From: a virus
Reading direction: 5' to 3' (one strand)
Length of the DNA: 64,000 bases
IMG/VR virus record: IMGVR_UViG_3300012995_000005
Span: 7,655 to 71,654 of that record
Positions 6,285 through 36,151 of this stretch are shown one piece after another (positions within the stretch are counted from its first letter, which is position 1; each line of letters opens with the position of its first letter). Below the pieces are notes generated by a model. That model saw nothing but the letters and a program-made list of their open reading frames with translations, searched no databases and had not been told where the DNA came from. The translations under genes were made by a program, and so were the position numbers.

Positions 6285-6733
6285 TATCCAGCCCTCTGGT
6301 CGATAGTTAACACGGCAGTAAAGGCCTTCCCGCGATACAAAGTGTCTTGCTGGCAGCAAAGGACAGCGAACGCTTTGCCATCGCCGTCAATCAGCATCAT
6401 TGTATTGAAGTTGTATGGTGTATCCGCAGGTAGCAATGAGTCCTGTAGCGTTGCGTTAATTGTGATCAACCCTTCTTTGGCAGTACAGACGAGGTTGCAC
6501 TCAGCAAATTTGTTTTTCAGATCGCTCAAGGAGTATGTCGACGGGATGTTCGCGATGTTCCAACCTCCCGCCGGGTTGGCGGTTACGAGGGCCGATGTAC
6601 CAAAGTACCCCTTCGACATTACGAACCTTGTTCCAGCCCCGATCTCTGACTCCGCGCGCCGGTTGTAAAAATAATCCAGCAGTGCAGCTCGAAATAGCTT
6701 CCCGCCGGTCTGAACGGCCTTAATTTCTGCCAT
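6284..6733 (-). CDS. Tail fibre attachment/assembly protein, P1 gpR-like
   Basis: LLDYFYNRRAES and CQQDTLYRGK motifs recalled from P1 gpR. Confidence 0.8.
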   Translation of the reverse strand: MAEIKAVQTGGKLFRAALLDYFYNRRAESEIGAGTRFVMSKGYFGTSALVTANPAGGWNIANIPSTYSLSDLKNKFAECNLVCTAKEGLITINATLQDSLLPADTPYNFNTMMLIDGDGKAFAVLCCQQDTLYRGKAFTAVLTIDQRAG

Positions 6734-6768
6734 AGAAGAACGCCTGTGCAGTGGTTGATTAGCAGGCG

Positions 6769-6787
6769 AGTTTATGTAAAGTGAGTT
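6769..6787 (-). promoter_or_regulatory. Late promoter (AACTCACTT-N4-TAAACT) for the R-S-tfa operon
   Basis: Shared motif, spacer length and -10 box. Confidence 0.7.
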
Positions 6788-6846
6788 TTAGAATTGAAAA
6801 CACCGGCCCAGTGGGGCTGGGCCTCTGCATTTTGTCATGCAGCCTG

Positions 6847-7905
6847 TTAAATGGTGTCTAGATAAATAATGGAGTTTATTCGTCCTACCTCGGCCGCAGA
6901 AATAGGCAGTATAGCGCTATCTACCTCTTCTGGGAATGTGTATCCGATTAGCTCTCCAGAGGTAAACTCGATGTTACAACCTCGGTAACCGAGCGTTTTA
7001 ATGCTGGCGATCCCGTCCACTACAACAAGGCGTGAATCATCCCCTTGCGTTGGGCGTATCATTGGCGCAGGCACCACATCAAGCACCCAGGCATCGAGTC
7101 GCATTTCATCCATATGGACGGGTACAGCCTCCAGTGGCCGAGGAATATTGCTGAGCGTTTGGGCCACAGTAAGATTTGTAGAAACAGACTGTGCTGCGAT
7201 CACCGTTTGGAGTGATTCGATATACCAGGTGCCGTTTTGGATCTTTGCGCTGGCGCCAGAGAGGGTGAATACTATTTTTCGCTCCACCAGCTCAAACCGC
7301 AAATGATATCCCATGCCATCAAACACTATATGCAGCGGTATCAACGGTTCTATGACCATTTTGAACTGACGCATGAATTCGTCTAACACCTTAGATGGAT
7401 CTGTGTCCGAATACACCTCGTAAACGTCATTCAGTGCCACGCTGATGCGCCCGCGCGAGGTTAGGAAGAAATCACCATACTTATCCTTTGACGTCTCCAG
7501 CTCGTCTTTGGTGACGAAATAGGAACCATACGGAAACTTTGCTTGATCCACGGGGGCATAAAGTGGCGCCCAAGTCGCCGCAAGGTTTTTGAACTCACGC
7601 CAAAGAGTTGCCTCAATTGGGCGACTTGTTCCCTTGAAATGGATCTCATCCAGACGTTGCGAAAGTAATACTGGCAGTGAAGTAGAATTTTCCCCATCGA
7701 TATAGAAGAACTTACCCAGTTCTCCCATCTTTTTCCTCAAGTCATCTTTATCCATTGAGTACAGCGATTTTCTATTGGCAGTGCGCTCAATCAATGGCAG
7801 AACAATACTGTTCAGCATTGACTGCACCACATCAGCAAACCCCGCCCACAACCCAGATTGTTGCTTAGCGGACGTCATTTGCTCTTTGAACCAATTATCT
7901 TTCAT
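6847..7905 (-). CDS. Baseplate protein, P1 gp16-like
   Basis: Synteny between bplA and R; WFKEQMT and RLDEIHFKG motifs. Confidence 0.65.
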   Translation of the reverse strand: MKDNWFKEQMTSAKQQSGLWAGFADVVQSMLNSIVLPLIERTANRKSLYSMDKDDLRKKMGELGKFFYIDGENSTSLPVLLSQRLDEIHFKGTSRPIEATLWREFKNLAATWAPLYAPVDQAKFPYGSYFVTKDELETSKDKYGDFFLTSRGRISVALNDVYEVYSDTDPSKVLDEFMRQFKMVIEPLIPLHIVFDGMGYHLRFELVERKIVFTLSGASAKIQNGTWYIESLQTVIAAQSVSTNLTVAQTLSNIPRPLEAVPVHMDEMRLDAWVLDVVPAPMIRPTQGDDSRLVVVDGIASIKTLGYRGCNIEFTSGELIGYTFPEEVDSAILPISAAEVGRINSIIYLDTI

Positions 7906-7913
7906 TATAACTC

Positions 7914-9326
7914 TCAGTATTTAAGTTCGAATTTCGATTTTTTCACATCAAGATAAATAAAATCATTTAGAGCTGCCGCTTCGCTCATATTTATAATCTC
8001 AAGCTTGAATTTCGACAACAGCCCTGTTGACTGAATAATCGCCCAAACTTCATTATGCGAAACTCGTGCAAACTCCCCTGATTCATCGCGTTCAAAATTA
8101 CTTGAGTCTCGACCCGCCCTAGCCTCCAGTTCATCGCGGATCTTCTTCTCTGCATCAACAATTACTTCGTTTTTTTTCACAACGCCAGTAACGTTAATTG
8201 TAAATGGCCGCTCATTTGTCTTTACGTATACAAAATTCTTGTTGAGTTCATTGGGGATATCCTGAAAGGCGCTTAAAACAACCGATTCCATTTGTTCCTG
8301 AGTCAGCCCTTTCTTATGTCCGCAGAAAAATACTGTATTAATATTTTTCAGAGAATGAACGCCTGTTGATTTTTCTTGCTCCTTCTCACCCCAAGCATTG
8401 ATCCAGCTTATATTTGGAATCTGAGTGCGAAGATAAAATTTATAGTCCGCGCCCCACACTACCTGGCCGTCATAGGCTGTAAAATATTGCGCTCTATTCC
8501 GTGTCTCTTCGGTAGTTTCGTAACCTGCTCCGTTTGTAATCGGAGTTTCTGTTTTTACCTCAATTTTACCTGATAAATCAGAAGATCCAGCATATGGCGT
8601 TAAAGTCTGTCCTTGCACAAGGGTGATATCACCATCACTTAACCACACATCTAAAATGACCTGTTCGCCACCAGCCGGCATCTTCCCAATCGAACCATCA
8701 CCAAAACGAATACCTATTTGCTCCGTGGGTCGATAGAATTTTACATAATGAAGAGAGTTCTTATTAGAAAGACGGAATTGAGGATTCTCTTCCCACCGGC
8801 GTGCCACTCCATTATCTGTGACAGATACATCGATACTGACACACCTCTTCGTCATAGCTTTCGTTAATGTGAAAGACAAGAACTCTGTTTCGTTTTCGAC
8901 ATCAAATATGAGCTGTTCTCGTTCAAGCTGCTTTGTTGGAACACCATGCCGAGTTTCCCCAGGCTTTAAAACAAGCGGTTCAACCAGCATGTAGCGTTTC
9001 TGTTCGTCAGAAATTAGATCCGCATAGATTGGAAGGGATTGTTGTATCTGAGTTTTATTTGTTACTGATGAAGTGCCATAAGATGGCATAATTTGGCGGG
9101 CCACATACCCACGATCCTCAGCACCAGCAAGGATTGAAGAGCGCTTTGTTGCTGTACTAATAAACCCTTCGGTTAACGCTTTCTCCGCAGCTGTTTGAGC
9201 TGCGTAAATTATCTGGCTGAGCATAATCGCCAGCATTTTCATAAACTGGCTATTTACAAAGCGACTCCACCAGACATTCTGCTGAATAAGGGCTGTGAAT
9301 TTCTCTAAAATTTCCTGCGAAGTCAT
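7914..9326 (-). CDS. bplA: Baseplate wedge protein BplA (gpJ/gp6-like)
   Basis: FISTATKRSSILAGAEDRGY and IRFGDG motifs; 470 aa; synteny. Confidence 0.8.
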   Translation of the reverse strand: MTSQEILEKFTALIQQNVWWSRFVNSQFMKMLAIMLSQIIYAAQTAAEKALTEGFISTATKRSSILAGAEDRGYVARQIMPSYGTSSVTNKTQIQQSLPIYADLISDEQKRYMLVEPLVLKPGETRHGVPTKQLEREQLIFDVENETEFLSFTLTKAMTKRCVSIDVSVTDNGVARRWEENPQFRLSNKNSLHYVKFYRPTEQIGIRFGDGSIGKMPAGGEQVILDVWLSDGDITLVQGQTLTPYAGSSDLSGKIEVKTETPITNGAGYETTEETRNRAQYFTAYDGQVVWGADYKFYLRTQIPNISWINAWGEKEQEKSTGVHSLKNINTVFFCGHKKGLTQEQMESVVLSAFQDIPNELNKNFVYVKTNERPFTINVTGVVKKNEVIVDAEKKIRDELEARAGRDSSNFERDESGEFARVSHNEVWAIIQSTGLLSKFKLEIINMSEAAALNDFIYLDVKKSKFELKY

Positions 9327-9330
9327 ATCA

Positions 9331-9678
9331 TTACTCCTTTTTCATCGCCCAGGAAAGATCCTGTTTCGGTATCCCAATAGTCAGGACAAATACATCGATT
9401 TCTGCTGGCTCTATCCTGATCCCTGTTAACTTCAAATCAGCTATATCGCTCATCATTTTGATGATGATCTCGTTCTCGATAGCGACCAGCGTATGCACGC
9501 TATCTAGAGGCTCGTGCTTATAACGCGGCAACGGATTTCCATACTCAGGTAGACCATAGACACTTCCTTCCGGCGTATGTAACCAGTCCTCAATGCGTGC
9601 TTGCATGGCTTCTACATCACCAATTTTGACGTTTACGCCCTCCCCGCTCACTCGTAAAAGGCTATCTATTTCGTTCAT
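9331..9678 (-). CDS. pmgA: PmgA-like baseplate protein (gp25/gpW-like)
   Basis: WLHTPEGSVYGLPEYG motif; synteny. Confidence 0.7.
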   Translation of the reverse strand: MNEIDSLLRVSGEGVNVKIGDVEAMQARIEDWLHTPEGSVYGLPEYGNPLPRYKHEPLDSVHTLVAIENEIIIKMMSDIADLKLTGIRIEPAEIDVFVLTIGIPKQDLSWAMKKE

Positions 9679-9708
9679 ATGAATACCTGTACTGGTAGCT
9701 AGGACGCT

Positions 9709-9727
9709 AATTTAAGCGAAGTGAGTT
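9709..9727 (-). promoter_or_regulatory. Late promoter (AACTCACTT-N4-TAAATT) for pmgA-bplA-16
   Basis: Shared motif in an intergenic gap. Confidence 0.7.
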
Positions 9728-9758
9728 AATGAGCGCGGCAGGAGTGCCGCGCCCACTA

Positions 9759-12700
9759 TCACCCGAAGAGTTTTTCGAGGGCACTATCTGATATTGAGGT
9801 TGGGACTTCCCCACGCGGGGCCGGCTGAGGGCTGTGGGCCGTCATATTGATATTTGTCTCTTTCGGTTCCGGCTTCACATTGAGTTGTTTCTCGACCCCT
9901 TTCGCAATACGTTCTAACCAGGACAGGCTTTCATCATCGTGGCTACGTGATTCATTATCGCGCTGATAAACTGGCGCCACACCACTAGCCGCCAGATTTG
10001 GGATCGGTGGAGGTGGTGAAGTTTGAAACGCAGAAATAACCTGCTGAGTGAGAGTATTTGCTTTTCCCCCAATCGCGTTAGAAACCGTGTCGCTCAGGAA
10101 AGATAATGGCGTATCAGCCATCAGGCCGGAAATGAGCGATGAAGCCCCGCTACCAACCGTATCGCCGGCCGTAGCTCCGAACGAAGACAACGGATTATCA
10201 ATATCTACACCTATCGATTGTAGCGCGCTTCTAGCTGCATCCTCCCCCACGCCTTTAACTGCTCCAATAGCAACGTTACCGATGCCTGAAGCCATGTATT
10301 TCGTCTCATCCCACCAGCTATCAGTTTCTGAATTTCCGGGGGGAGACATTTTATTGCGAGATTTTTTCACCTCATTTGCCGGGACGATCTCCATCGACCG
10401 CTCTTGAGCACCACTAACCGTAGGAGGTGGAATTAGCTCAATGTCCGCATCAGACAAGCCCGTATAACCCATTCTGCGGCTAGCACGCCCTTGAAGAACT
10501 GCGATGGCATCTGGCAAGCCAGACGCACCTTGCAAGGCCGTTGGAACTTTGTCATTTAGAGGTACTGTTAACCCTCTTTCAGGAGCCGGAACAGTCAACC
10601 CTTCAACATCAAACATCCCTGTTAGAGCTGCATCACTTTTCCCACCAAGTTCGCCTAAATACGTTGCTGCTGTATCGTAAGCCTCGGATGCAGCTTCGCT
10701 GACTCGTGAGCCGATTGTTTGCTTTTCTGGCCGAGAGAATTGAGCATTGTTTGTTATCGCCTCAAGGCCATCGTTTTGTCGCTGTTGGTTAATTATTGAT
10801 AATGTTTCTGGATTAAATTGACCAACCCATTTTCTCCCGGAGCGCGCACCAATGGCTGTTTTTATAAATTGATCGGAAACCTGCGGGGCACCGCCTTCAA
10901 TTGTAGCGATTTGCCGCATCACTTTAGTCATTACGTCTGCATTGCTTAGGTCGAGGCGATCGCTTTCCCTCACCCTCAAAGTTTTAGATAATTGAGCTAT
11001 ATAGCCCTCAGTGTCATTCTCGCCTTTTGGGGCGTAATTCGTGATAATACCGCGCACGGTATTCAGCTTCTGATATCCTACAGCTTTAGACGTCCCTTCA
11101 GCGTAACTGCTAAGCTGATTAGCCAAGGCTCGAAACCCTTCTTCTGGCGAGTCGAATTTCGCGAAGCGTCGCTCACCTTTGGCATTTGCAGCTTCCAGCT
11201 CAGCGCCGGCTTGACCTGCATATTCAAGGTTCCCAAAATTATTATTTCTAAATGACCTGGTATGTGAGTTAACCCCGCCAATATTTAGTTCACTCGACAC
11301 ATTATTAAACGTCGGAACTGAACCAGGAGTTCCACTCTGATCTTCCAATGGCTCTGCCATACCTGGCATGGTAGATTGAAGTGATCGGTCTAGGTCTTTA
11401 ATTGCCTCAGTCGTTTGCTTTGCTCCAGCTCGAATGGCTTCAACATGACTATCACTACTGGTACCAAAGAATTCTTTTACGCTACTAATACCGCTATCTA
11501 AAGACTCTTTGACGCTGCTAACGCCGCTATCAAGCGATTCTGCGATCCCATCGGTGCTAAACGTTAAGCTGTCCGCAACACCATCCATACCCAGCCATCT
11601 GGCGCCATCAGCTAAGAACCCTGCCCCTCCTGAAACTAGACCACCCATGTCGATTACGTTGGCTGCTGCATATTCGGTTTTTTGGCGCCCTGGGACTTCT
11701 TGCCCCTCAGCCAGTTTAAACGCCCCACGTTGCCCATCGTCATTGCTGAAGCCTTCAACCGCATCAATGCCGGCGCCAATAATCGTCCCGACCACAGGAA
11801 TAGCCTTCAGCGCCCCCTTTGCAGCAAGTTTCCCTGCGGCTTTCTCGGCGACCTTTTCACCAGCAACTTTTTCAGCTGCATGCTCAGCCGATGCAGTCGA
11901 TGCTTTTGCAGCGACCTTTTCATTTGCCTTAGCTGAAGCTCTACTTTGCGATACTTTCCTTCGCCGTTTAGACCTCTTGCCGGATTTTTTCTGCTTCCGG
12001 CTTTCCACTTCACTATTTGTTGATTTCTGAGGGCTTTCAGTAACTGGCGTGGCTAGTTCACCAGCCTCACCATTCACGCCGAAGACCCCTTTAATGGCTC
12101 CGTAAGCGCCGGCCGCTACTGCACCCGCACCCGCCGCTACTTTTGCTATCTTACTGCCTTTACCCTTACCTGCTGGCACTGAAGGTTTGCGCTCTCCATG
12201 CACTCCCCCTGTTGTGAGCGCTCCGCGCCCAGTTCGAATTACATCGCCGACGTCACTTGCACCGGCCAATCGCCTGAACAGCTTTACAAGCACTCCGCCA
12301 CCAAGAGCTAAAGACAAGCCGCCTAAAATACGAGATCCAATGGCCTTTCCAATGGCTTTACCACCCAGGCCAGCAAGAACACTACCCAATAGACCCCGGC
12401 CGGCACTGCCCTTTTCGTTTTTGTCTCGAATTTCACCAAGGACTCGTATGATTTCTGCGTCTGACTTCGCAAGTTGTTCCTGTTGCGATTCCATGACCGA
12501 AATTACTTTGCCTGTGGTGCTCGTACTATAAGCTTGCTGTGACTTGGTTGGTGTCACACCGGCGAACGTCACGGGTGTTTGACTCGTCGATCCTGGTTGG
12601 TCTTTGCGCTTATCTCTCCATTCCTTGAGGCTGACAACCTTATCGTTTAAACCGCTCACAAGTTCGGCGGCTTCTTTCCCTGCGCTAAAAAGAACCCCGC

Positions 12701-26396: not shown

Positions 26397-27174
26397 CGAT
26401 CCCCCCAAAGAGCGCGTTAGTAACGCTGGCGGGAGTGATCGCTTCAATGGCCCCTTGCATAGGTGAACTCGTGCCCATTGAGTCCAACGCTGCAATGCCT
26501 ACAGCGTTTTTGAATGCCTTGGCCGCCAGGGCGACAGAAGCCACGCCATCGGACGTTAATTGACTAACGGCGCTAAAAGCCTCCGTAAGCCCGCTGGTGG
26601 CCTTTAGCATTTCATCGCATACAGCCACCAGCCTCTTAACTAGTTCATTGCTTAGCGTTGGCGCTGGTGGGCCTGAAGGTGGCTCGCCCCCACCAGCAGG
26701 CGGTGCAATGTTCAGGATCTTGTTAATTTCATGCATTACAGCGATCACTTGCTGTGGGTTAACTTTCGCCACTGCGTCAGCCATTGACCTTACCGTTACC
26801 GTGTCGGCCAATGCTTGCACTAAGGCTGGCGCCGTACCGACCTGTTTGCCTTCGCCTTTGAGATGACAATCCCACCCAATGCTCACGGTAAGCAGCGACG
26901 ACGGTGACTGGTAGGTTGTGAATGCGGCGGTAAATTCCCGGCCCGTTGATTCGGCAGACTCTAGTGAAGTAGCTACCTCGTTAATTTGGTTGATCGGTAC
27001 TGAAATACTTGTGGGGTATGCGATGCCAGGAAGTAGCGAAGCTAAAAGCGAGGTGTGTTTAGCCTTCGCCTGTTCGCTGGCTGCTAACGCTTGGGTTACT
27101 GAAGTGGCCGGCGTGAAGCCAGTCTTATTTAGTTCTCGGAACGCATTGACTTGGCGAGGATTATCTAACATCAC
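26368..27174 (-). CDS. upfB: UpfB-like virion-associated protein
   Basis: LLTVSIGWDCH motif and synteny with the PAAR gene. Confidence 0.6.
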   Translation of the reverse strand: MMLDNPRQVNAFRELNKTGFTPATSVTQALAASEQAKAKHTSLLASLLPGIAYPTSISVPINQINEVATSLESAESTGREFTAAFTTYQSPSSLLTVSIGWDCHLKGEGKQVGTAPALVQALADTVTVRSMADAVAKVNPQQVIAVMHEINKILNIAPPAGGGEPPSGPPAPTLSNELVKRLVAVCDEMLKATSGLTEAFSAVSQLTSDGVASVALAAKAFKNAVGIAALDSMGTSSPMQGAIEAITPASVTNALFGGIDERHRSADR

Positions 27175-27455
27175 GCAACCTCCACCAGCGGGTCACCGGA
27201 TGCGACGATAGAACCGCAGGAAACAGGGTCATCTTTGCAGACGATCCCTTTGCCGTTGACGGTTATCCAGGGCCGAGTTGATATCGCCGTACCGCTGTGC
27301 ACGCTGTTCCCGTCGGAGTGTTCGCTAAAGGCACTACCGTTAACCATGACTGCAACGCCATTGATTGTGACGAGTGGATCTCCCTCTACGCATGGGCGAG
27401 GCGGAAAACCTTCATGCCCAGAGCAAATAGCCCCTTTGATAGAGATGCTTGCCAT
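27171..27455 (-). CDS. upfC: PAAR-like spike-tip protein (UpfC / T4 gp5.4-like)
   Basis: CSGHEGFPPRP, HS...H, DPVSCGS motifs. Confidence 0.85.
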   Translation of the reverse strand: MASISIKGAICSGHEGFPPRPCVEGDPLVTINGVAVMVNGSAFSEHSDGNSVHSGTAISTRPWITVNGKGIVCKDDPVSCGSIVASGDPLVEVA

Positions 27456-29006: not shown

Positions 29007-30272
29007 TTATCGCACCTTAAATTTGGGCAAATCTGACCAGCGCGTTGTGTAGGCTGGCGATAACCATTGCCTCTTCATTTGGAAGCCTGTATTGATGCCT
29101 TGGCCTGCTAGAAATAACGTGCCTCGAGCATCTTTGTTCAGCCTATCCATAACGGCCATCAATTTTTCGCTGTTTGGCCGTGGGGGTGCCTCGTCAAATA
29201 ACGCGAGTTGTGCCTCCCGGCCGCTAAAATCCGCCAGCATGATACCCGCTTTGGCGTAACGTATCCCAGGGCGCCAGATTCGGAGTAAAGCGCGCTGAGC
29301 AGCCTCTACGATATCGCGAGTATCTTGCGTTGGTGTTATGCGCGTTTCGCAAAATTGATTACTGTACTGTGCATCATGCGAGAACGGGCTGGTGCGAATA
29401 AACACAGAGATTGCCTTGCAATACTGCTTCTCCTGCCTCAGCTTGCTGGCCGCTATTGAAGCGTGACCGCAGATAGCCTGCTGCATATCCACCAGCTCGG
29501 TCACCCGCCGGCTGAAAGATCTGGAGCTGATGATTTGTTGTTTGGTCGGGGGATGTTCCTCTAGCGATAAGCATGGTTCGCCACGCAACTCCCGAACGGT
29601 TCGCTCTAACACAACGCCAAAGTTTTTCCGAATGAACTTTGTATCGGCGAGGGCCAGATCAAGCGCCGTTTTGTAGCCCATCACGGTTAATTTTTTTGTT
29701 AGTTGTCGGCCGACGCCCCACACCTCACTAACTGGCAGCAAAGACAATAATTTATAACGGCGCGCGGCATCATCCAAAACAACCACGCCGCCGGTTTTAC
29801 TCCATGTTTTTGCAGCGTAATTTGCGATTTTAGCTAGCGTTTTTGAGGGGCCAAACCCCACACCTATCGTTAGTCCTGTAGCCCTATACACGGTGTCGCG
29901 CAGCTGGTGGCCGAACTCATCATAACTCATGGCCTTACCCATCCCTGCGCACTCAATGAATAGCTCATCAATACTGTATTGCTCCACGCGCGCGGAGAGG
30001 GATTCTACTGTTGCGACAAAACGCGCGGACATGTCCGCGTAAAGCGAATAATTTGAAGAAAACACAACAACTTCATGTTGTTTTATGAGGTGCTGAACTT
30101 TAAAAATCGGCTCCCCCATCTTCAAGCCTGCCTGTTTCGCGAGACGGTTTCTGGCGACGATATTTCCATCATTATTTGAGGTCACCACAACCGCTCGATT
30201 GTCGAGGTCAGGTCTGAAGATCTGCTCACATGAAGCGTACATAGAGTTTACGTCAGCGAGAGCGAACATCAT
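29007..30272 (-). CDS. umuC: Y-family DNA polymerase V subunit UmuC
   Basis: FALADVNSMYASCE, SNNDG, YSIDE, LSPAYTTRW. Confidence 0.95.
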   Translation of the reverse strand: MMFALADVNSMYASCEQIFRPDLDNRAVVVTSNNDGNIVARNRLAKQAGLKMGEPIFKVQHLIKQHEVVVFSSNYSLYADMSARFVATVESLSARVEQYSIDELFIECAGMGKAMSYDEFGHQLRDTVYRATGLTIGVGFGPSKTLAKIANYAAKTWSKTGGVVVLDDAARRYKLLSLLPVSEVWGVGRQLTKKLTVMGYKTALDLALADTKFIRKNFGVVLERTVRELRGEPCLSLEEHPPTKQQIISSRSFSRRVTELVDMQQAICGHASIAASKLRQEKQYCKAISVFIRTSPFSHDAQYSNQFCETRITPTQDTRDIVEAAQRALLRIWRPGIRYAKAGIMLADFSGREAQLALFDEAPPRPNSEKLMAVMDRLNKDARGTLFLAGQGINTGFQMKRQWLSPAYTTRWSDLPKFKVR

Positions 30273-30709
30273 CTCACTGCCTGGTGCAGCCAAAATGTGA
30301 CAACCCCCCACACCTCGAAGGTGTCAGGATCTGGATAAATTGGGCTGTACGCAGCATTCATTGGCATAAGGCAAAGGCGAGGGCGCGTATGGAGCATCTT
30401 CACTGTAAATTCACTGTCGACTTTGGCAATGATGATAGAACCATGCTTTGCGCGCAGATCTCGATCAACGATTAGCAAATCGCCATCATGTATACCAGCT
30501 TCGATCATCGAGTCACCTTCAGCCCAGCCAAAGAACGTTGAGTGTTTTTTGGCGATGCAATACTCGTTGAGATCCAGGGTCGCGTCTTCGTACCCTTGCG
30601 CTGGCGATGGGAAGCCAGCAGGTATGCGTTCAGCGAAAAGCGGCGTTTGTAATTGTGGTGCGCTGGTGTCTGGGCGCAGGAGATAGCGGGGCGGGTCTAT
30701 TAGTTTCAT
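30269..30709 (-). CDS. umuD: UmuD (S24 autopeptidase)
   Basis: IPAGFPSPA, GDSM, FTVK motifs; start at MKLIDPP. Confidence 0.92.
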   Translation of the reverse strand: MKLIDPPRYLLRPDTSAPQLQTPLFAERIPAGFPSPAQGYEDATLDLNEYCIAKKHSTFFGWAEGDSMIEAGIHDGDLLIVDRDLRAKHGSIIIAKVDSEFTVKMLHTRPRLCLMPMNAAYSPIYPDPDTFEVWGVVTFWLHQAVR

Positions 30710-30725
30710 GATTGCTTCCGTGGTG

Positions 30726-30741
30726 CTGTATGCATATACAG
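30726..30741. promoter_or_regulatory. LexA (SOS) box
   Basis: CTGTATGCATATACAG upstream of umuD. Confidence 0.9.
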
Positions 30742-30786
30742 TATATATTGCCGAAAGCAGATTATACAAATGCTGCGGATAGAGAC

Positions 30787-30814
30787 AAAAAAGGCCTTCA
30801 GTAATGAAGGCCTT
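30787..30814 (-). terminator. Intrinsic terminator after the HigA-like gene
   Basis: AAGGCCTTCA-ttac-TGAAGGCCTT followed by a U-run. Confidence 0.75.
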
Positions 30815-30823
30815 AGCTGATGC

Positions 30824-31201
30824 TTAGCGGAGTTGAGAAGGCTTGCAGCTGTAGATCTTTGCCAGTTTGCCTAGAGTTGCGGCCTGTGGGCGTTTAGAGC
30901 CTTCCAGCTGTGAGACTGAAGCCTGGGAAACGCCCAGTTTCGCCGCAACATCGGCTTGGGATAAGTTGCGATAGATGCGCCATGCGGCCAGCAGGCTCAC
31001 GTTTTCTTTCACCTTGATGCTGACGACAGCATGAGGGATAACTACGGAATCGTCATCTGCATCTGTTGAAGGAGAGTATGGGACGTCTTCATACGCATCA
31101 TCATCACTGTCGGCCGCAGCAAGCAGGCGATTGTAGTCGTCGATCGGTACAACGGCGTAAGCAACGTTATTGTTACCATCTTTGATAAATTGAACGGACA
31201 T
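30824..31201 (-). CDS. HigA-like antitoxin (C-terminal XRE HTH)
   Basis: AYAVVPIDDY N-terminus; WRIYRNLSQADVAAKLGVSQASVSQLE HTH. Confidence 0.85.
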   Translation of the reverse strand: MSVQFIKDGNNNVAYAVVPIDDYNRLLAAADSDDDAYEDVPYSPSTDADDDSVVIPHAVVSIKVKENVSLLAAWRIYRNLSQADVAAKLGVSQASVSQLEGSKRPQAATLGKLAKIYSCKPSQLR

Positions 31202-31315
31202 AACGCAAATTCCTCGACAAGTAGGTTATTCCATAGATATAAATTAATAAATCATACTTCATACTTGTTGTGTGTGAAGTTTTACGGTGTTGAGGGGGGT
31301 ATCCCCCCCTCTCAC

Positions 31316-31576
31316 TTAGCTGTATGTGGTACTTGTCCGGCGCTTCACAGTCATTATCTTTATGACCGTTGGCACCCCGTCGATAACTTGAAACAACACC
31401 CGGTAATCACCAACCCGCATCCTGTATTCGTTGTCACCGTCTTTCATCTTCTTTATGTCGAGGTTTACGCTGGGAAAACCTGCTAACTGATCGACCTTAT
31501 CGAAGATTTTCCGTCTATACCGCACATCGATGCTATCCAACTGCTTCTCAGCGCGGCGTGACCAAACAATTTCCAT
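31316..31576 (-). CDS. RelE/HigB-family ribonuclease toxin
   Basis: YRMRVGDYRVLF motif; toxin-first order. Confidence 0.9.
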   Translation of the reverse strand: MEIVWSRRAEKQLDSIDVRYRRKIFDKVDQLAGFPSVNLDIKKMKDGDNEYRMRVGDYRVLFQVIDGVPTVIKIMTVKRRTSTTYS

Positions 31577-32146: not shown

Positions 32147-33019
32147 TCAAAATGCAGCGAGAATGTCGTTAGCGTTATGCCTCGTGCCCCCCTTACAGCT
32201 CAGAGTACGAGGCGCATCCAGCTGGTGGATGGTCATGCCATGTTTGACGTAAAGCTCTACGACATTCGGTGCCCGACTGTTAGTAATAATTACGTCAGCC
32301 CCGCGCTGATAGGCTGCTGAGAGGTGATCCATCAGGGCCTCTTGGTCAGAGAATCTGAAACCGCCCGAGGAGTAAGTTGTGAATCCCTCCTTGCCGGGGA
32401 GAGGTTCATAAGGTGGATCGCAAAAGACCACATCGCCGGCGCCGGCCTCGGCTATTGTTTCTTGGAAGTGCTGGTGCGTGAATATGCAGCGCGCGGCAAC
32501 GGAGTGGCATTCCTTGATCTCGTTAACCGGCAGATATGGAGCTTTGTACTTGCCATAACTCGTATTGATTGCACCTGCGAGGTTGTAACGCATCAGGCCA
32601 TTAAAACAATGGCGATTAATGAATACAAAGCAAGCTGCGCGGGCCACCAGCGGCATGTTGTGCTTTTCCAAATTGAACTGCTTGCGAACTCCAGCATAAC
32701 CGTCAGCGGTGTTTTTGGTGTCGAATAGCTCCACGAGCGCCGCAATTAACGCATCTGGAGAAGACTGGATTACTTGATAGGTTACGATTAGGTCATTGTT
32801 TATGTCGCCGCAAAGATATTCAGGGAACTTGAAGTTCATAAACAACGATCCACCACCAACGAACGGTTCTATCAGGCGTTTCCCGGCGGGCAGGTGTTGG
32901 GCGATGGTTGTCAATACTGAACCCTTGCCACCAGCCCATTTAAACACGGAGCGTATAGGCTTCTCGCGAAGTTTAGCGCGCGCAGGCGAGATAACGTCTG
33001 GGGTGCTGGCTACTTCCAT
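32147..33019 (-). CDS. dam: Dam-family adenine methyltransferase
   Basis: KWAGGK, EPFVGGG, DPPY. Confidence 0.93.
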   Translation of the reverse strand: MEVASTPDVISPARAKLREKPIRSVFKWAGGKGSVLTTIAQHLPAGKRLIEPFVGGGSLFMNFKFPEYLCGDINNDLIVTYQVIQSSPDALIAALVELFDTKNTADGYAGVRKQFNLEKHNMPLVARAACFVFINRHCFNGLMRYNLAGAINTSYGKYKAPYLPVNEIKECHSVAARCIFTHQHFQETIAEAGAGDVVFCDPPYEPLPGKEGFTTYSSGGFRFSDQEALMDHLSAAYQRGADVIITNSRAPNVVELYVKHGMTIHQLDAPRTLSCKGGTRHNANDILAAF

Positions 33020-33939
33020 TCTGATTCGCCCCCAAACGCCACCAGGGTGTCGTTAATGACCTCTGAGACTGTCTCAGCCATAAGCAGGAAGTCAGCGCGT
33101 TTGCGAACGTCGGAGCCGTTCTCGTCTTCTTCCTGCATGTCATCGTTTGTTTCAAGGAATAGATCGGAGAACTTCAGACGCTTAAATGAGCAGTCATCGG
33201 TCATCATAAAGTCAACGTGGAACTTAGTGGCGTGGAACATACTAAGATTGGTTACAAGCTTCCCACTCGAAACGGTGGACTCGATGGTGTCACTACCCAA
33301 TGGCTCATTTCGAAAAGAAGTAGTACCGCCTTCAGAGAGGATGCTAACCATTCGGGCATCGCATTCTACGTGCATGTGAAGTGGGGCCGGTGCTTCGCCA
33401 GCTTTCATCCATTCGGTCATTACCAGCTCGATCGGTTCTTTTGTTGTGACCGGAACAACTGGCAAAGAGCCTAGAGTTTTCCGCAATAGTGCGAGTACGT
33501 CTTCAGCACGTTTGGCGTTAGTGGTGTCAACGATGATTCGACCTTTGTCCTGGTCGATCCAAAGCTGGGTTTCTGTCGTCCGGGTGAAGGCTCGGGGAAG
33601 TAGATTTTGGAGCACTTCATCTTTGATAGTCGCGCGTTCTGCGTGCTTCAGTCGGCGGTGTTGTTCATTCTCAAGCTGTTTAACCCTGTCATTTACCTCT
33701 GATTTGAGGAAGTCTGGAGGGATGACCTTTTTCTCGGTCTGCATGGTGATCAGGATGTGGTTTTTCACCTGAAGAACGAATTGTTCTTTGCCATCGAGAG
33801 CCTTCCATCCGCTACGACTCATGTCATGTGAGCCACAAGGTTTGAATGCAAAAGCTTTCAGCTGCTCATTGAGATTTTCTGGAGCGATCTCGCCAGAACG
33901 ATGAAGGTACACCACCGCATTTTTGAACAGGGTAAACAA
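33010..33939 (-). CDS. rdgC: RdgC recombination-associated protein (P1 hrdC-like)
   Basis: FKNAVVY, PCGSHDMSRSGW, LLPRAF, RKTLGSLPVVP, ADFLLM. Confidence 0.92.
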   Translation of the reverse strand: MFTLFKNAVVYLHRSGEIAPENLNEQLKAFAFKPCGSHDMSRSGWKALDGKEQFVLQVKNHILITMQTEKKVIPPDFLKSEVNDRVKQLENEQHRRLKHAERATIKDEVLQNLLPRAFTRTTETQLWIDQDKGRIIVDTTNAKRAEDVLALLRKTLGSLPVVPVTTKEPIELVMTEWMKAGEAPAPLHMHVECDARMVSILSEGGTTSFRNEPLGSDTIESTVSSGKLVTNLSMFHATKFHVDFMMTDDCSFKRLKFSDLFLETNDDMQEEDENGSDVRKRADFLLMAETVSEVINDTLVAFGGESEWK

Positions 33940-33953
33940 ACGGTTCTCCTTGG

Positions 33954-33987
33954 TGTTTTGTAAAACTAATAATTAATTAGTTTAACA
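33954..33987. promoter_or_regulatory. Bivalent C1-type operator upstream of rdgC-dam
   Basis: TGTTTTGTAAAACTAAT-aatta-ATTAGTTTAACA. Confidence 0.75.
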
Positions 33988-34185
33988 GGTTTGAGGTGTA
34001 TTCACGTCAACTTTTATGTGAGCGCTGCTGGAGAGGAGCCGGGAAAATTTAGATAGCCATATCGGGAGGTAAGGAAACTGCCACTATTTGCTGTGGCATA
34101 TCCGATCGCTATTTAGGGGGGGCGTCTTTGTAGATGTAGATTTGTGCTCGTTTGTAACTGACCTCAGCCTGTAGTCATAATGTCG

Positions 34186-34500
34186 TCAATTCTTTGATTG
34201 AGCGTTTTCGGCAAGAAATTTGATTTTATTAAGGAAACCGACAGTTGTTTCACCCCATAGTTCGGGCGCAACATCATTACCCCAGCGGGACATGAATTCA
34301 TCATCAAGTGTGTCAGGGTATGCAGCTTCAAATTCAGCCACATCTGCTATCAGCGTCTTGATCTGTGTTGGTGGGTTGTCCCGAAGATAGAAGCCCATGA
34401 CTCCTGCAAGTGTCGTTGCTCCAGTTATTTCGTAGCTATCCTGACCGAAGTAAATTTGTATCAGATGTTCTAGAGCGGAAAAATTACCCATAATTTTCAT
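34186..34500 (-). CDS. CdiI-type immunity protein
   Basis: LIQIYFGQD signature; immediately downstream of the toxin. Confidence 0.8.
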   Translation of the reverse strand: MKIMGNFSALEHLIQIYFGQDSYEITGATTLAGVMGFYLRDNPPTQIKTLIADVAEFEAAYPDTLDDEFMSRWGNDVAPELWGETTVGFLNKIKFLAENAQSKN

Positions 34501-34509
34501 GGTATTATC

Positions 34510-35340
34510 TCAGGTGGTGGGATAGGCAGTGAGAATGTAATATGGTTTACCGTGGAAGACTTCAAAGCGTATTACTACCCTGAGGTTGGATAATTTGGTC
34601 GTAGTCTGCTCGCCACGCAGTAAGCCATATCCAATGACTCGTCCGGCTGAATAGTTCGCGACGAGTGGTGACGCAGGGCGCGTTGAACTTCCTGCCCAAA
34701 CTTTTATCCATTCCTGGTTATGTTTCACCGCTTCAGAGATAGCCTCTTCGGCAATACGCATGTTTGTGAATGACGTTGCTGCCCGCATTGTAGGGTTTTT
34801 AGCAAGTCGTTGAGCCAATTCATCCTGCGACTTGGCTACATGCTGTGCAATCGTATGACCACCAGGCTTAATGCCGGTCATCGATTCATGCTCAATCAAT
34901 CTCACTCTCCCCACTCTAACTGAAGCAACACGAGCAGCCCCTATCGCGACAGCAAACACTAGGGGAACCGCTATATCCACGGTTAGGCCTACGTTGTAGG
35001 CTGTCTCTTCATCGGCTCCCAGCGAGCGGGCCAGTGAAACAGCAGATTGGTATGTGTCAGTTGTTGTGGGTTGGCCTGTGATAATCTGATTAGAAGCGGC
35101 CTTTATGCTATCAAGACTGTGCGTACCGACAATGACGCAACCGACTTTGGTTAAAAATGTTGGATCAGGCGCATAACACATCACGCCAGCGCCCATTAGT
35201 TCGACAACACCACCAGCCAAGCCCAATCCACCAAACAGGCGATTACTGAGAGTTTCACCCTCAGTGACGCTCTTGTTTGACATTACCGCCGCCAGTTGCA
35301 CGGGAGAGAAAGCAACCTTTAATCCTTCTTCTATAGCCAT
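34510..35340 (-). CDS. Polymorphic toxin with a C-terminal bacterial RNase-A-like domain
   Basis: HE...GGHTIAQHV.KS..EL..RL and ILTAYP motifs; hydrophobic ~140-aa N-terminal domain. Confidence 0.8.
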   Translation of the reverse strand: MAIEEGLKVAFSPVQLAAVMSNKSVTEGETLSNRLFGGLGLAGGVVELMGAGVMCYAPDPTFLTKVGCVIVGTHSLDSIKAASNQIITGQPTTTDTYQSAVSLARSLGADEETAYNVGLTVDIAVPLVFAVAIGAARVASVRVGRVRLIEHESMTGIKPGGHTIAQHVAKSQDELAQRLAKNPTMRAATSFTNMRIAEEAISEAVKHNQEWIKVWAGSSTRPASPLVANYSAGRVIGYGLLRGEQTTTKLSNLRVVIRFEVFHGKPYYILTAYPTT

Positions 35341-35515
35341 AACAATTCCATTCGCTAGGTCGATTTTATGATTCTATAGTGTACATAAATAACACAACAA
35401 TAATTCTCTGGTAAGCAGGAAATCGAATGGCATCGCTCGTGGCAGCTCTACCTAAAGCGAAGAACTTATCCCCAATTTCTGTGGATAACCGCCGGTAGCC
35501 GGCGGCTATTCTAGG

Positions 35516-36151
35516 TTATGCTTTGTCAAAGGAGAATTGTGCACCTGTGAAGCTCATTTTACCACCAGCAGTAAAAGCCATATTGCCAGCTGCTTTCACG
35601 TCCAGATCACTACCGGCAACCACAGTGGCCTTGCCTCCTGTATGGATGAACGTATCACCGGCACTGATCACGTAGATCTGACCGGCCTCATTCATGCCTA
35701 TGGTCGTACCATCTCCAGTGCGTGTAATGGCATAACCGCCACCAGCCGAGCGCACTTCAAGTAGTCCGTTGCGCTTCAGCACACTGTCAGTGGTAGGATT
35801 CAGCTTTGGTGCTGGTGGTGCCCCTTCGACCTCTGGTGGCGTATATTGCCCACCTTGACCCGATGCTTCAGGTGGCACATTGGGGACACCACCAGGCCAA
35901 TCTTGAGCGGCGCCTACGATAATCGGCCGGCGACTGTCACCGTCATACGGAAACTCAACCCATACTTGATCGCCGGCAATGGTCGGAACGAAACCACCCC
36001 CTATGGGCAACAGGTATTCAGCCCACGGCAGTGTCGCGTCTGGCATTTCATCCCATTCATGCATCAGGCGGATCTGCGCCTTCATCATGCCGCCCTGGTG
36101 CACGGTATTGACGACTTTAGCGCGGCGTTTACCAACGATTTTGTTAGGCAC
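35516..36151 (-). CDS. Baseplate spike protein (P1 gp5; gpV/gp5 OB-fold)
   Basis: WVEFPYDGDSR and PNVPPEASGQG; beta-helix C-terminus. Confidence 0.85.
   Translation of the reverse strand: MPNKIVGKRRAKVVNTVHQGGMMKAQIRLMHEWDEMPDATLPWAEYLLPIGGGFVPTIAGDQVWVEFPYDGDSRRPIIVGAAQDWPGGVPNVPPEASGQGGQYTPPEVEGAPPAPKLNPTTDSVLKRNGLLEVRSAGGGYAITRTGDGTTIGMNEAGQIYVISAGDTFIHTGGKATVVAGSDLDVKAAGNMAFTAGGKMSFTGAQFSFDKA

Follow-up and report, generated by a model that had tools for sequence, protein, structure and literature searches.

The window analysed here, 64,000 nucleotides spanning positions 7,655 to 71,654 of the IMG/VR virus record IMGVR_UViG_3300012995_000005, carries a two-gene cassette for a predicted RNase A-like toxin and a putative immunity protein of the CdiI_2 family, which lies between a gp5-like hub/spike gene and rdgC. 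A reading made earlier from the letters of the window (the sequence-only reading) had described the spike gene, a 175-bp gap, a 276-residue toxin and a CdiI-type gene as co-oriented, and all of these open reading frames (ORFs) were found in place on the minus strand, as was rdgC (Table 1; coordinates of the toxin cassette, in the table and below, are whole-window positions). The source record is 81,239 bp long, has direct terminal repeats and an estimated completeness of 100%. No RNA run was listed among sequencing runs searched for the stretch, whereas one DNA run contains it and may come from the source sample.

Table 1. Features of the toxin–immunity locus and its context (aa, amino acids)
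Feature	Position	Strand	Remarks
Toxin ORF	34510-35340	-	276 aa
Five-helix N-terminal domain	34891-35340	-	Toxin residues 1-150; conserved; treated as a remote DUF4225 relative
RNase A-like nuclease domain, CdiA-CT type	34519-34860	-	Toxin residues 161-274; PF18431
Immunity gene	34186-34500	-	104 aa; starts 9 bp past the toxin stop
Cargo slot	34033-35460	-	1428 bp, unmatched in the closest relatives; holds the whole cassette and its flanks
Gap between spike and toxin genes	35341-35515	-	175 bp
AT-rich stretch 5' of the toxin	35341-35460	-	Weak sigma-70-like TTGTTG-18-TAGAAT, 8/12
GC-rich hairpin GCCGCCGG-cta-CCGGCGGT	35488-35506	-	10 bp past the spike stop; no T-run
Terminator-like hairpin	34079-34098	-	6-pair stem and T-rich tail; ~90 bp past the immunity gene, in inserted DNA
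gp5-like hub/spike gene	35516-36151	-	211 aa; context, outside the cassette; closes the late tail operon
rdgC	33010-33939	-	PF04381, E 5e-80; context, opens the next module
Inverted repeat	33959-33987		12-nt arms, 5-nt spacer; context, just 5' of rdgC in DNA common to relatives
PAAR-type tail-tip protein, UpfC homologue	27171-27455	-	phrog_281; context, outside the cassette

The spike protein is 52% identical to P1 gp5 and 55% identical to the gene 5 product of D6, and matches the phrog_430 baseplate hub family (E 1e-26), with a weak Phage_base_V match of 23.2 bits that falls just below the 23.8 cut-off. The PAAR ORF, also pointed out in the sequence-only reading, was confirmed by its match to phrog_281 (E 4e-26) and reached 25 bits with PAAR_motif. 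Its product is 64% identical to P1 UpfC and, since it has matches in 283 phage records, we regard it on this distribution as an ordinary core part of the tail tip of P1-like phages. With D6 and P1 (Punavirus group) the element shares the tail module with these gp5 and UpfC homologues and a RepB-type replicon with partition genes, and with D6 the order gene 5–rdgC–methyltransferase. Judged by its PHROG tail families, its gp5 and UpfC homologues and this gene order, it is a P1/D6-like phage-plasmid. Closest to it are a Serratia marcescens plasmid of 84 kb, non-mobilisable and carrying a RepB replicon (~80% DNA identity), and two contigs from IMG/VR, 84 and 89 kb long; megablast of the locus gave no match in phages and a single one, the Serratia relative, in plasmids. 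Because the nearest plasmid relative and the closest toxin homologues are both from Serratia, the host is probably Serratia. Beyond rdgC–dam, at 29007-31576, the window holds homologues of umuC and umuD, followed in this list by genes for a RelE/HigB-type toxin and a helix-turn-helix antitoxin; the Serratia plasmid relative has all of these in the same order.

A predicted RNase A-like nuclease and its putative immunity protein

The sequence-only reading of the toxin tip as RNase A-like, and of the following gene as CdiI-type, holds at the level of domain families: toxin residues 161-274 match RNAse_A_bac (PF18431) over the whole profile (E 2.1e-31; 109.5 bits, cut-off 27), and the immunity gene product matches CdiI_2 (PF18593; E 1.2e-16; 61.6 bits, cut-off 26.7). 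The resemblance it had noted to the CdiA-CT/CdiI type of Yersinia kristensenii was likewise borne out, in that the nuclease domain aligns by phmmer with chain 5E3E_B of the CdiA-CT structure (E 4e-11) and keeps all four of the residues that matter in CdiA-CT(Ykris) by mutagenesis, His175, Arg186, Thr276 and Tyr278 (Batot et al., 2017; PMC5435912), as H167, R178, T271 and Y273. The toxin is a predicted RNase with intact active-site residues and the CdiI_2 protein a putative neutraliser of the adjacent nuclease. Comparison of the immunity protein with the CdiI chain of 5E3E gave no sequence match, the two being too diverged.

A free-standing two-domain toxin family

A word-indexed search with toxin residues 1-150 yielded 102 homologues, nearly all of 270-280 residues, free-standing and conserved at the extreme N-terminus, and all full-length ones carry PF18431. 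By these alignments the toxin belongs to a fixed two-domain family and is not an adaptor joined to many different toxins. The label 'polymorphic' given to it in the sequence-only reading therefore fits only in part, since the N-domain always sits on the same RNase fold, whereas the tip and the immunity protein diverge much faster: mean identity to the window toxin reaches 63% in the N-domain against 38% in the tip, and for the closest homologue, the closest being from Serratia, it is 88% and 43% respectively. Moreover, DNA similarity to the Serratia copies ends at the border between the domains, and the immunity protein is only 27-33% identical to those beside two close Serratia-type toxin relatives, whose N-domains are 88% and 86% identical to that of the window toxin. 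These three features together make up the pattern expected of a tip that would be co-evolving with its immunity protein.

Family pairs occupy diverse loci. In the Serratia rubidaea chromosome the pair lies between GyrB/ParE-type and ParC-type topoisomerase genes, in Klebsiella aerogenes it adjoins the pga operon, and elsewhere it stands at the edge of a likely integrated element of primase/AlpA type, by a Fic/PhdYeFM pair. Others are on two Pantoea agglomerans plasmids, one conjugative and one mobilisable, after a DUF2767 gene, and a family member is present on a Ralstonia megaplasmid. No phage tail genes were found near family members elsewhere at the loci examined. The DUF2767 gene of the Pantoea plasmids is directly 5' of the toxin gene (6582-6818 in locus L003 and 6580-6957 in locus L004) and has no counterpart in the window. 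In Pantoea sp. BAV 3049 (loci L032, L042, L051, L055 and L066) and in genome G290 there are 5-8 copies or fragments per genome, so the family can expand into a multi-allele arsenal. At six further loci (L072-L077), ORFs of 27-53 residues and a spurious 118-residue frame, around position 8000, retain nothing but the conserved 5' end, with its SPVQLAA motif; in that of Serratia plymuthica (L075), residues ~1-33 are fused straight to the C-terminal NGKPYYILTA, as in the remnant of an internal deletion. We take these short ORFs as evidence of apparent decay or recombination at the loci concerned.

An N-terminal domain with remote similarity to DUF4225

The hydrophobic N-terminal part of ~140 residues described in the sequence-only reading is indeed helical, with a strongly hydrophobic helix at ~117-143 and, within the same ~145 residues, a glycine-rich amphipathic helix at ~35-56; AlphaFold, given a 46-homologue alignment, models a five-helix bundle (pLDDT, the predicted local distance difference test, 89). 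No Pfam or NCBIfam model matched the domain, and Foldseek of the model found nothing significant in the PDB; among AlphaFold DB clusters it matched CdiA, VENN, DUF637 and Rhs proteins weakly (E 0.005-0.2), which is to be read as a lead only. Among 1.84 billion representative proteins, a profile search recovered 706 relatives of the domain, many with the core alone (residues ~30-145) embedded in longer proteins: in Rhs proteins of 1008 and 2160 residues, just ahead of a short C-terminal domain; in proteins of ~840 residues; and, in a 416-residue protein, before an ATLF-type peptidase domain. Such a core ahead of varied C-terminal domains is what we would expect of a pre-toxin membrane-translocation module. 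In five of the relatives (P0230, P0220, P0249, P0224 and P0225) the core stands directly before an ATLF-type peptidase or unassigned Rhs/TcdB-type tips.

In several of the relatives, found at E ~1e-21, Pfam places DUF4225 on the same residues, with P0220 above the cut-off. We therefore treat the N-domain, on profile similarity, as a remote relative of DUF4225 or a member of a related superfamily, and not as a member of the Pfam family itself: in hhalign, the N-domain (A2) aligned with 12 bona fide DUF4225 domains from carrier genomes over 108 columns (E 3.3e-5; probability 72%), and with full-length alignments the probability was 50%. With PF13988, the Pfam profile of DUF4225, a search of genomes reported bona fide DUF4225 genes in four carriers and none of the family loci. 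The comparison with known type VI secretion system (T6SS) domains called for by the sequence-only reading thus gave a relative, at a remove.

DUF4225 is a T6SS toxin domain that acts in the periplasm, causes lysis and is usually encoded right after hcp, and PAAR, VgrG, Hcp, Rhs and CdiA-type toxins can also end in it (PMC9765294). Pantoea agglomerans has four DUF4225 proteins among its T6SS1 effectors, and they are present in its T6SS1 secretome (10.64898/2026.08.01.741415). The window toxin resembles such effectors (DUF4225-18764 of Vibrio parahaemolyticus, PMC9765294; Pse9a-d of P. agglomerans, 10.64898/2026.08.01.741415), which are small, lack a known delivery domain, follow hcp or stand as orphans and have the immunity gene directly downstream; its N-domain is remotely homologous to theirs over ~108 columns and is similarly spread across Rhs-, CdiA- and Hcp-linked toxins. 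In the Hcp-linked effectors, however, DUF4225 is C-terminal and is itself the periplasm-acting toxin, countered by a membrane immunity protein, whereas in the window toxin the domain is N-terminal and precedes a cytoplasm-acting RNase, and the sole immunity gene encodes a soluble CdiI_2 protein. Because the domain comes first, the RNase that follows acts in the cytoplasm and the only immunity gene is for a soluble protein, we infer that the N-domain may serve in T6SS loading and/or in passage of the nuclease across the inner membrane of the target. In a Serratia ureilytica genome, the T6SS cluster includes a bona fide DUF4225 gene at a distance of ~3.5 kb from tssC (G001:C2:211108-216053); since the orphan RNase family is present in the same genome, the two related domains occur together in one T6SS-positive host.

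The PIX-type delivery domain, with which the N-terminus had been proposed for comparison, appears to be a different one. PIX effectors are orphan T6SS effectors of Enterobacterales, Pse3/Pse4 (10.1101/2023.07.16.549128), and, like the window toxin and its family, have a conserved N-domain of ~140 residues, a variable C-terminal toxin and, in some cases, a location on conjugative plasmids (E. coli rows beside traG/traH). The PIX rows, however, are 348-354 residues long, have no predicted membrane helix and span many toxin folds, whereas, in a comparison made by description, the window N-domain is joined solely to the RNase A fold in its 102 free-standing homologues, although its more distant core relatives do precede other C-terminal domains. 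None of the top 150 N-domain profile matches was of PIX-like length and aligned from the N-terminus. These indirect signs point against the N-domain being PIX.

The family data also bear on whether the pair could be an orphan CdiA-CT/CdiI, a spare tip kept for recombination into a host cdiA and delivered by contact-dependent inhibition (CDI). Both Pfam families, that of the toxin and that of the immunity protein, owe their definition to a CDI system, the fold search gave its weak matches to CdiA, VENN and DUF637 regions, and the pair is like that of Y. kristensenii ATCC 33638 (PDB 5E3E; Batot et al., 2017; PMC5435912) in the RNase A-like fold family, the four functional residues and the CdiI_2 gene downstream. 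The window toxin, however, is not part of a CdiA filament: it has its own ATG start, no VENN motif and a different N-domain, all 102 of its 102 homologues are free-standing proteins of ~276 residues with a conserved extreme N-terminus, and its delivery is probably by T6SS instead of type V secretion. Moreover, no cdiA or cdiB was found beside any locus examined, the window locus being flanked by tail genes and rdgC. We consider a spare CDI tip extremely unlikely.

Association of the family with the type VI secretion system

In neighbour clustering of 55 genomic loci of the toxin family, with a scan of recurrent clusters, hcp (PF05638, E 5e-21) was found to end 2 bp before the family gene in eleven Photorhabdus species. 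This is, as judged from gene order, the layout of an Hcp auxiliary module. The Photorhabdus loci (L022-L036, L068 and L069, ~6800-9900) run DUF2645–hcp–289-residue toxin followed by 2-3 tandem CdiI_2 genes, and the extra CdiI_2 copies suggest accumulated protection against other alleles. Of the 46 genomes with the family, 44 have the T6SS sheath gene tssC (PF05943), distant ones among them, namely Ralstonia, Roseomonas and metagenome-assembled genomes (MAGs) of Acidobacteriaceae and Advenella. In an even sample of 121 genomes from the GTDB family around Serratia, tssC was found in 9/9 family-positive genomes and in 57/121 overall (hypergeometric p ~8e-4, calculated by hand and uncorrected for relatedness, genome size or the many small symbiont genomes in the sample). 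The RNase domain, moreover, has been listed in 'a group of putative T6SS effectors' of Burkholderiales and Enterobacteriaceae (Batot et al., 2017; PMC5435912).

Because of the hcp adjacency in Photorhabdus, the co-occurrence with tssC and the DUF4225-like N-domain, we favour, and consider reasonably probable, that the cassette is an orphan T6SS effector–immunity moron carried by the phage-plasmid and fired by the T6SS of the host, the first of three options raised by the sequence-only reading. Several points weigh against it. The hcp linkage comes from a single conserved locus of a single genus and so counts as one evolutionary event; the co-occurrence with tssC is weak evidence, T6SS being common in the genera concerned, and two of the 46 carriers (one MAG and one Ralstonia) showed no tssC. 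The link to DUF4225 is remote (hhalign probability 50-72%), and PF13988 gave no match on the window toxin even at E <= 10. T6SS-dependent secretion of family members is what we infer, and a T6SS is assumed for the host of this element. A promoter scan found no clear promoter for the cassette, and in the window itself gp5 and PAAR are phage tail parts, not T6SS core neighbours.

A variable cargo slot with no fixed tie to gene 5

Comparison with three close relatives (L012, L013 and L001) by blastn found homology solely at 37195-35461 and 34032-32901, that is, running through the spike gene and the GC-rich hairpin behind it, stopping at 35461 and returning at 34032, ~90 bp before rdgC. The slot between holds other DNA in these relatives: ~590 bp with an ORF of 130-135 residues on the opposite strand in the IMG/VR contigs, and ~790 bp (up to 794) with an ORF of 147 residues in the Serratia plasmid, these ORFs having no kinship to the cassette or to each other. 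In D6 there are ~60 bp between gene 5 and rdgC. Among a sample of 80 viral contigs encoding a gp5 homologue, 28 are D6-like, with rdgC 75-87 bp past the spike stop, two have a slot version of 730-742 bp and 50 are P1-like and have no rdgC at that place; a homologue of the toxin or of the immunity protein was found in none of the 80, and the toxin had no tblastn match in phage records. The cassette thus stands at this junction in the window element only, unlike in D6 and in P1; the sequence-only reading had placed ban/dbn next to gene 5 of P1, and a convergent dbn–ban pair is indeed annotated there. No direct or inverted repeats that would signal a transposon- or integron-type insertion were found flanking the slot.

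As annotated in P1 and D6, the late operon, which runs 26-25-7-24-6-5 in P1, closes with gene 5. As gene 5 ends the late tail operon and rdgC opens the next module, the slot is a module boundary, and the boundary between gene 5 and rdgC–dam is a typical moron site. In D6 (L015, 1588-2299), a toxin–antitoxin pair with a regulator is set between tail genes 25 and 7, so accessory cargo is tolerated even inside the tail block of this phage group. The GC-rich hairpin past the spike gene is within the block common to the three relatives, which ends at 35461; the terminator scan did not pick it out, and the operon may end there. The AT-rich stretch 5' of the toxin may hold the cassette's own promoter, although the scan of this region on the toxin strand called no sigma-70 site, TTGTTG-18-TAGAAT being below threshold.

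These comparisons bear directly on the proposal, a second option of the sequence-only reading, that the contractile tail carries the toxin on or in itself (spike, PAAR tip or tube lumen) and injects it into the cell being infected, in parallel to the vgrG–effector–immunity layout. The toxin gene does adjoin a co-oriented gp5-like spike gene, the family may use Hcp as a carrier, and Hcp and VgrG have homologues in the tail tubes and spikes of phages. The adjacency on which the parallel rests is, however, unique to this element: linkage of the cassette to gene 5, whose absence in relatives the sequence-only reading had itself named as speaking against its proposal, was seen neither in the three close relatives nor in the 80 gp5-bearing contigs, and at the loci examined family members elsewhere have no tail genes beside them. 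Every P1-like tail has PAAR and gp5 among its core parts, the tube lumen of tailed phages is normally filled by the tape measure protein, and an injected RNase would harm the very cell needed for replication or lysogeny unless immunity were made at once. A complex prediction with three spike copies, PAAR and toxin residues 1-150 scored 0.00 with the partner poorly folded without an alignment, and is evidence neither way. On these comparisons, the adjacency of cassette and spike looks like an accident of the cargo insertion site, with no sign of the phage firing the toxin, and we judge delivery by the tail very unlikely.

The position of the cassette, co-oriented with and directly 3' of the late tail operon, would also suit a bacteriocin-like product, made by read-through from that operon, freed on lysis of induced lysogens and entering cells by itself through a membrane-active N-domain. 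The hairpin after gene 5 lacks a T-run, no strong promoter of the cassette's own was found, and the N-domain is hydrophobic and helical. The toxin, however, has just two domains in 276 residues and lacks a receptor-binding or outer-membrane translocation domain of colicin/pyocin type; most family members are outside phages and away from lysis genes; and the co-occurrence with T6SS would be left unexplained. We regard this as distinctly unlikely.

Somewhat less remote, though still unlikely in our view, is the third option of the sequence-only reading, an intracellular toxin–antitoxin, addiction or abortive-infection module whose RNase, kept in check by the immunity protein inside the lysogen, would be released on loss of the element or on infection by another phage, stabilising a low-copy phage-plasmid or excluding competitors. 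The element already holds maintenance-type genes (the RelE/HigA-like pair at 30824-31576 and umuDC), D6 has its toxin–antitoxin pair inside the tail gene block, family members occur on plasmids and by an integrated element next to the Fic/PhdYeFM pair, and toxin and immunity genes are tightly coupled. Nonetheless, PADLOC had no match for the toxin or the immunity protein (nor for the slot ORFs of the relatives), and a conserved hydrophobic N-domain of 150 residues has no obvious role in a cytoplasmic pair of this kind. Domains related to this N-domain sit in secreted Rhs and CdiA-type toxins, the toxin-first gene order is that of effector and immunity genes, and many members are chromosomal, among housekeeping genes, while those of Photorhabdus follow hcp and have the tandem immunity genes typical of secreted toxins.

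A proposed borrowed effector–immunity pair and its possible benefit to the element

For the cassette as T6SS cargo, we propose the following course. An orphan effector–immunity pair would have landed in the variable slot between gene 5 and rdgC–dam, and the lysogen would make the toxin together with the immunity protein. The toxin would be loaded, probably via Hcp, onto the host's own T6SS, which would inject it into neighbouring cells, where the N-domain may help the nuclease to cross the membrane and reach the cytoplasm. There the nuclease would degrade RNA, while in the lysogen it would be neutralised by the CdiI_2 protein. Lysogens would be protected and cells without the element, or losing it, killed, and the killing of non-carriers coupled with protection of lysogens would therefore give the element a benefit in both competition and maintenance.

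A bolder view, which we put forward tentatively and think doubtful, is that the borrowed pair is a device for addiction and spread at the level of the population, the host T6SS killing kin that lack or lose the element; in its most radical version, the virion itself would inject the Hcp-adapted toxin from its Hcp-like tail tube or spike.

Much of what would be combined here has already been described, namely the toxin fold, the immunity family, the putative T6SS link of the RNase domain, DUF4225 in T6SS and mobile orphan pairs. New are the vehicle, a P1/D6-like phage-plasmid, and the clearer description of the two-domain family. For a T6SS effector of this kind borne by a phage-plasmid or prophage we found no direct precedent in the literature searched, which is no proof that there is none.

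If T6SS cargo is the right reading, the phage-plasmid would equip its lysogen with a toxin specificity new to the T6SS of that host, a lysogenic conversion for warfare between bacteria that would at the same time be a way to punish cells that lose the element. Conjugative plasmids and islands are already known carriers of orphan effector–immunity pairs, so that the list of vehicles would be extended with no new mechanism. The family itself would be a widespread and apparently uncharacterised two-domain effector, with a DUF4225-like domain placed before a cytoplasm-acting RNase, and this arrangement suggests that helical domains of DUF4225 type may act as membrane-crossing modules besides being periplasmic toxins.

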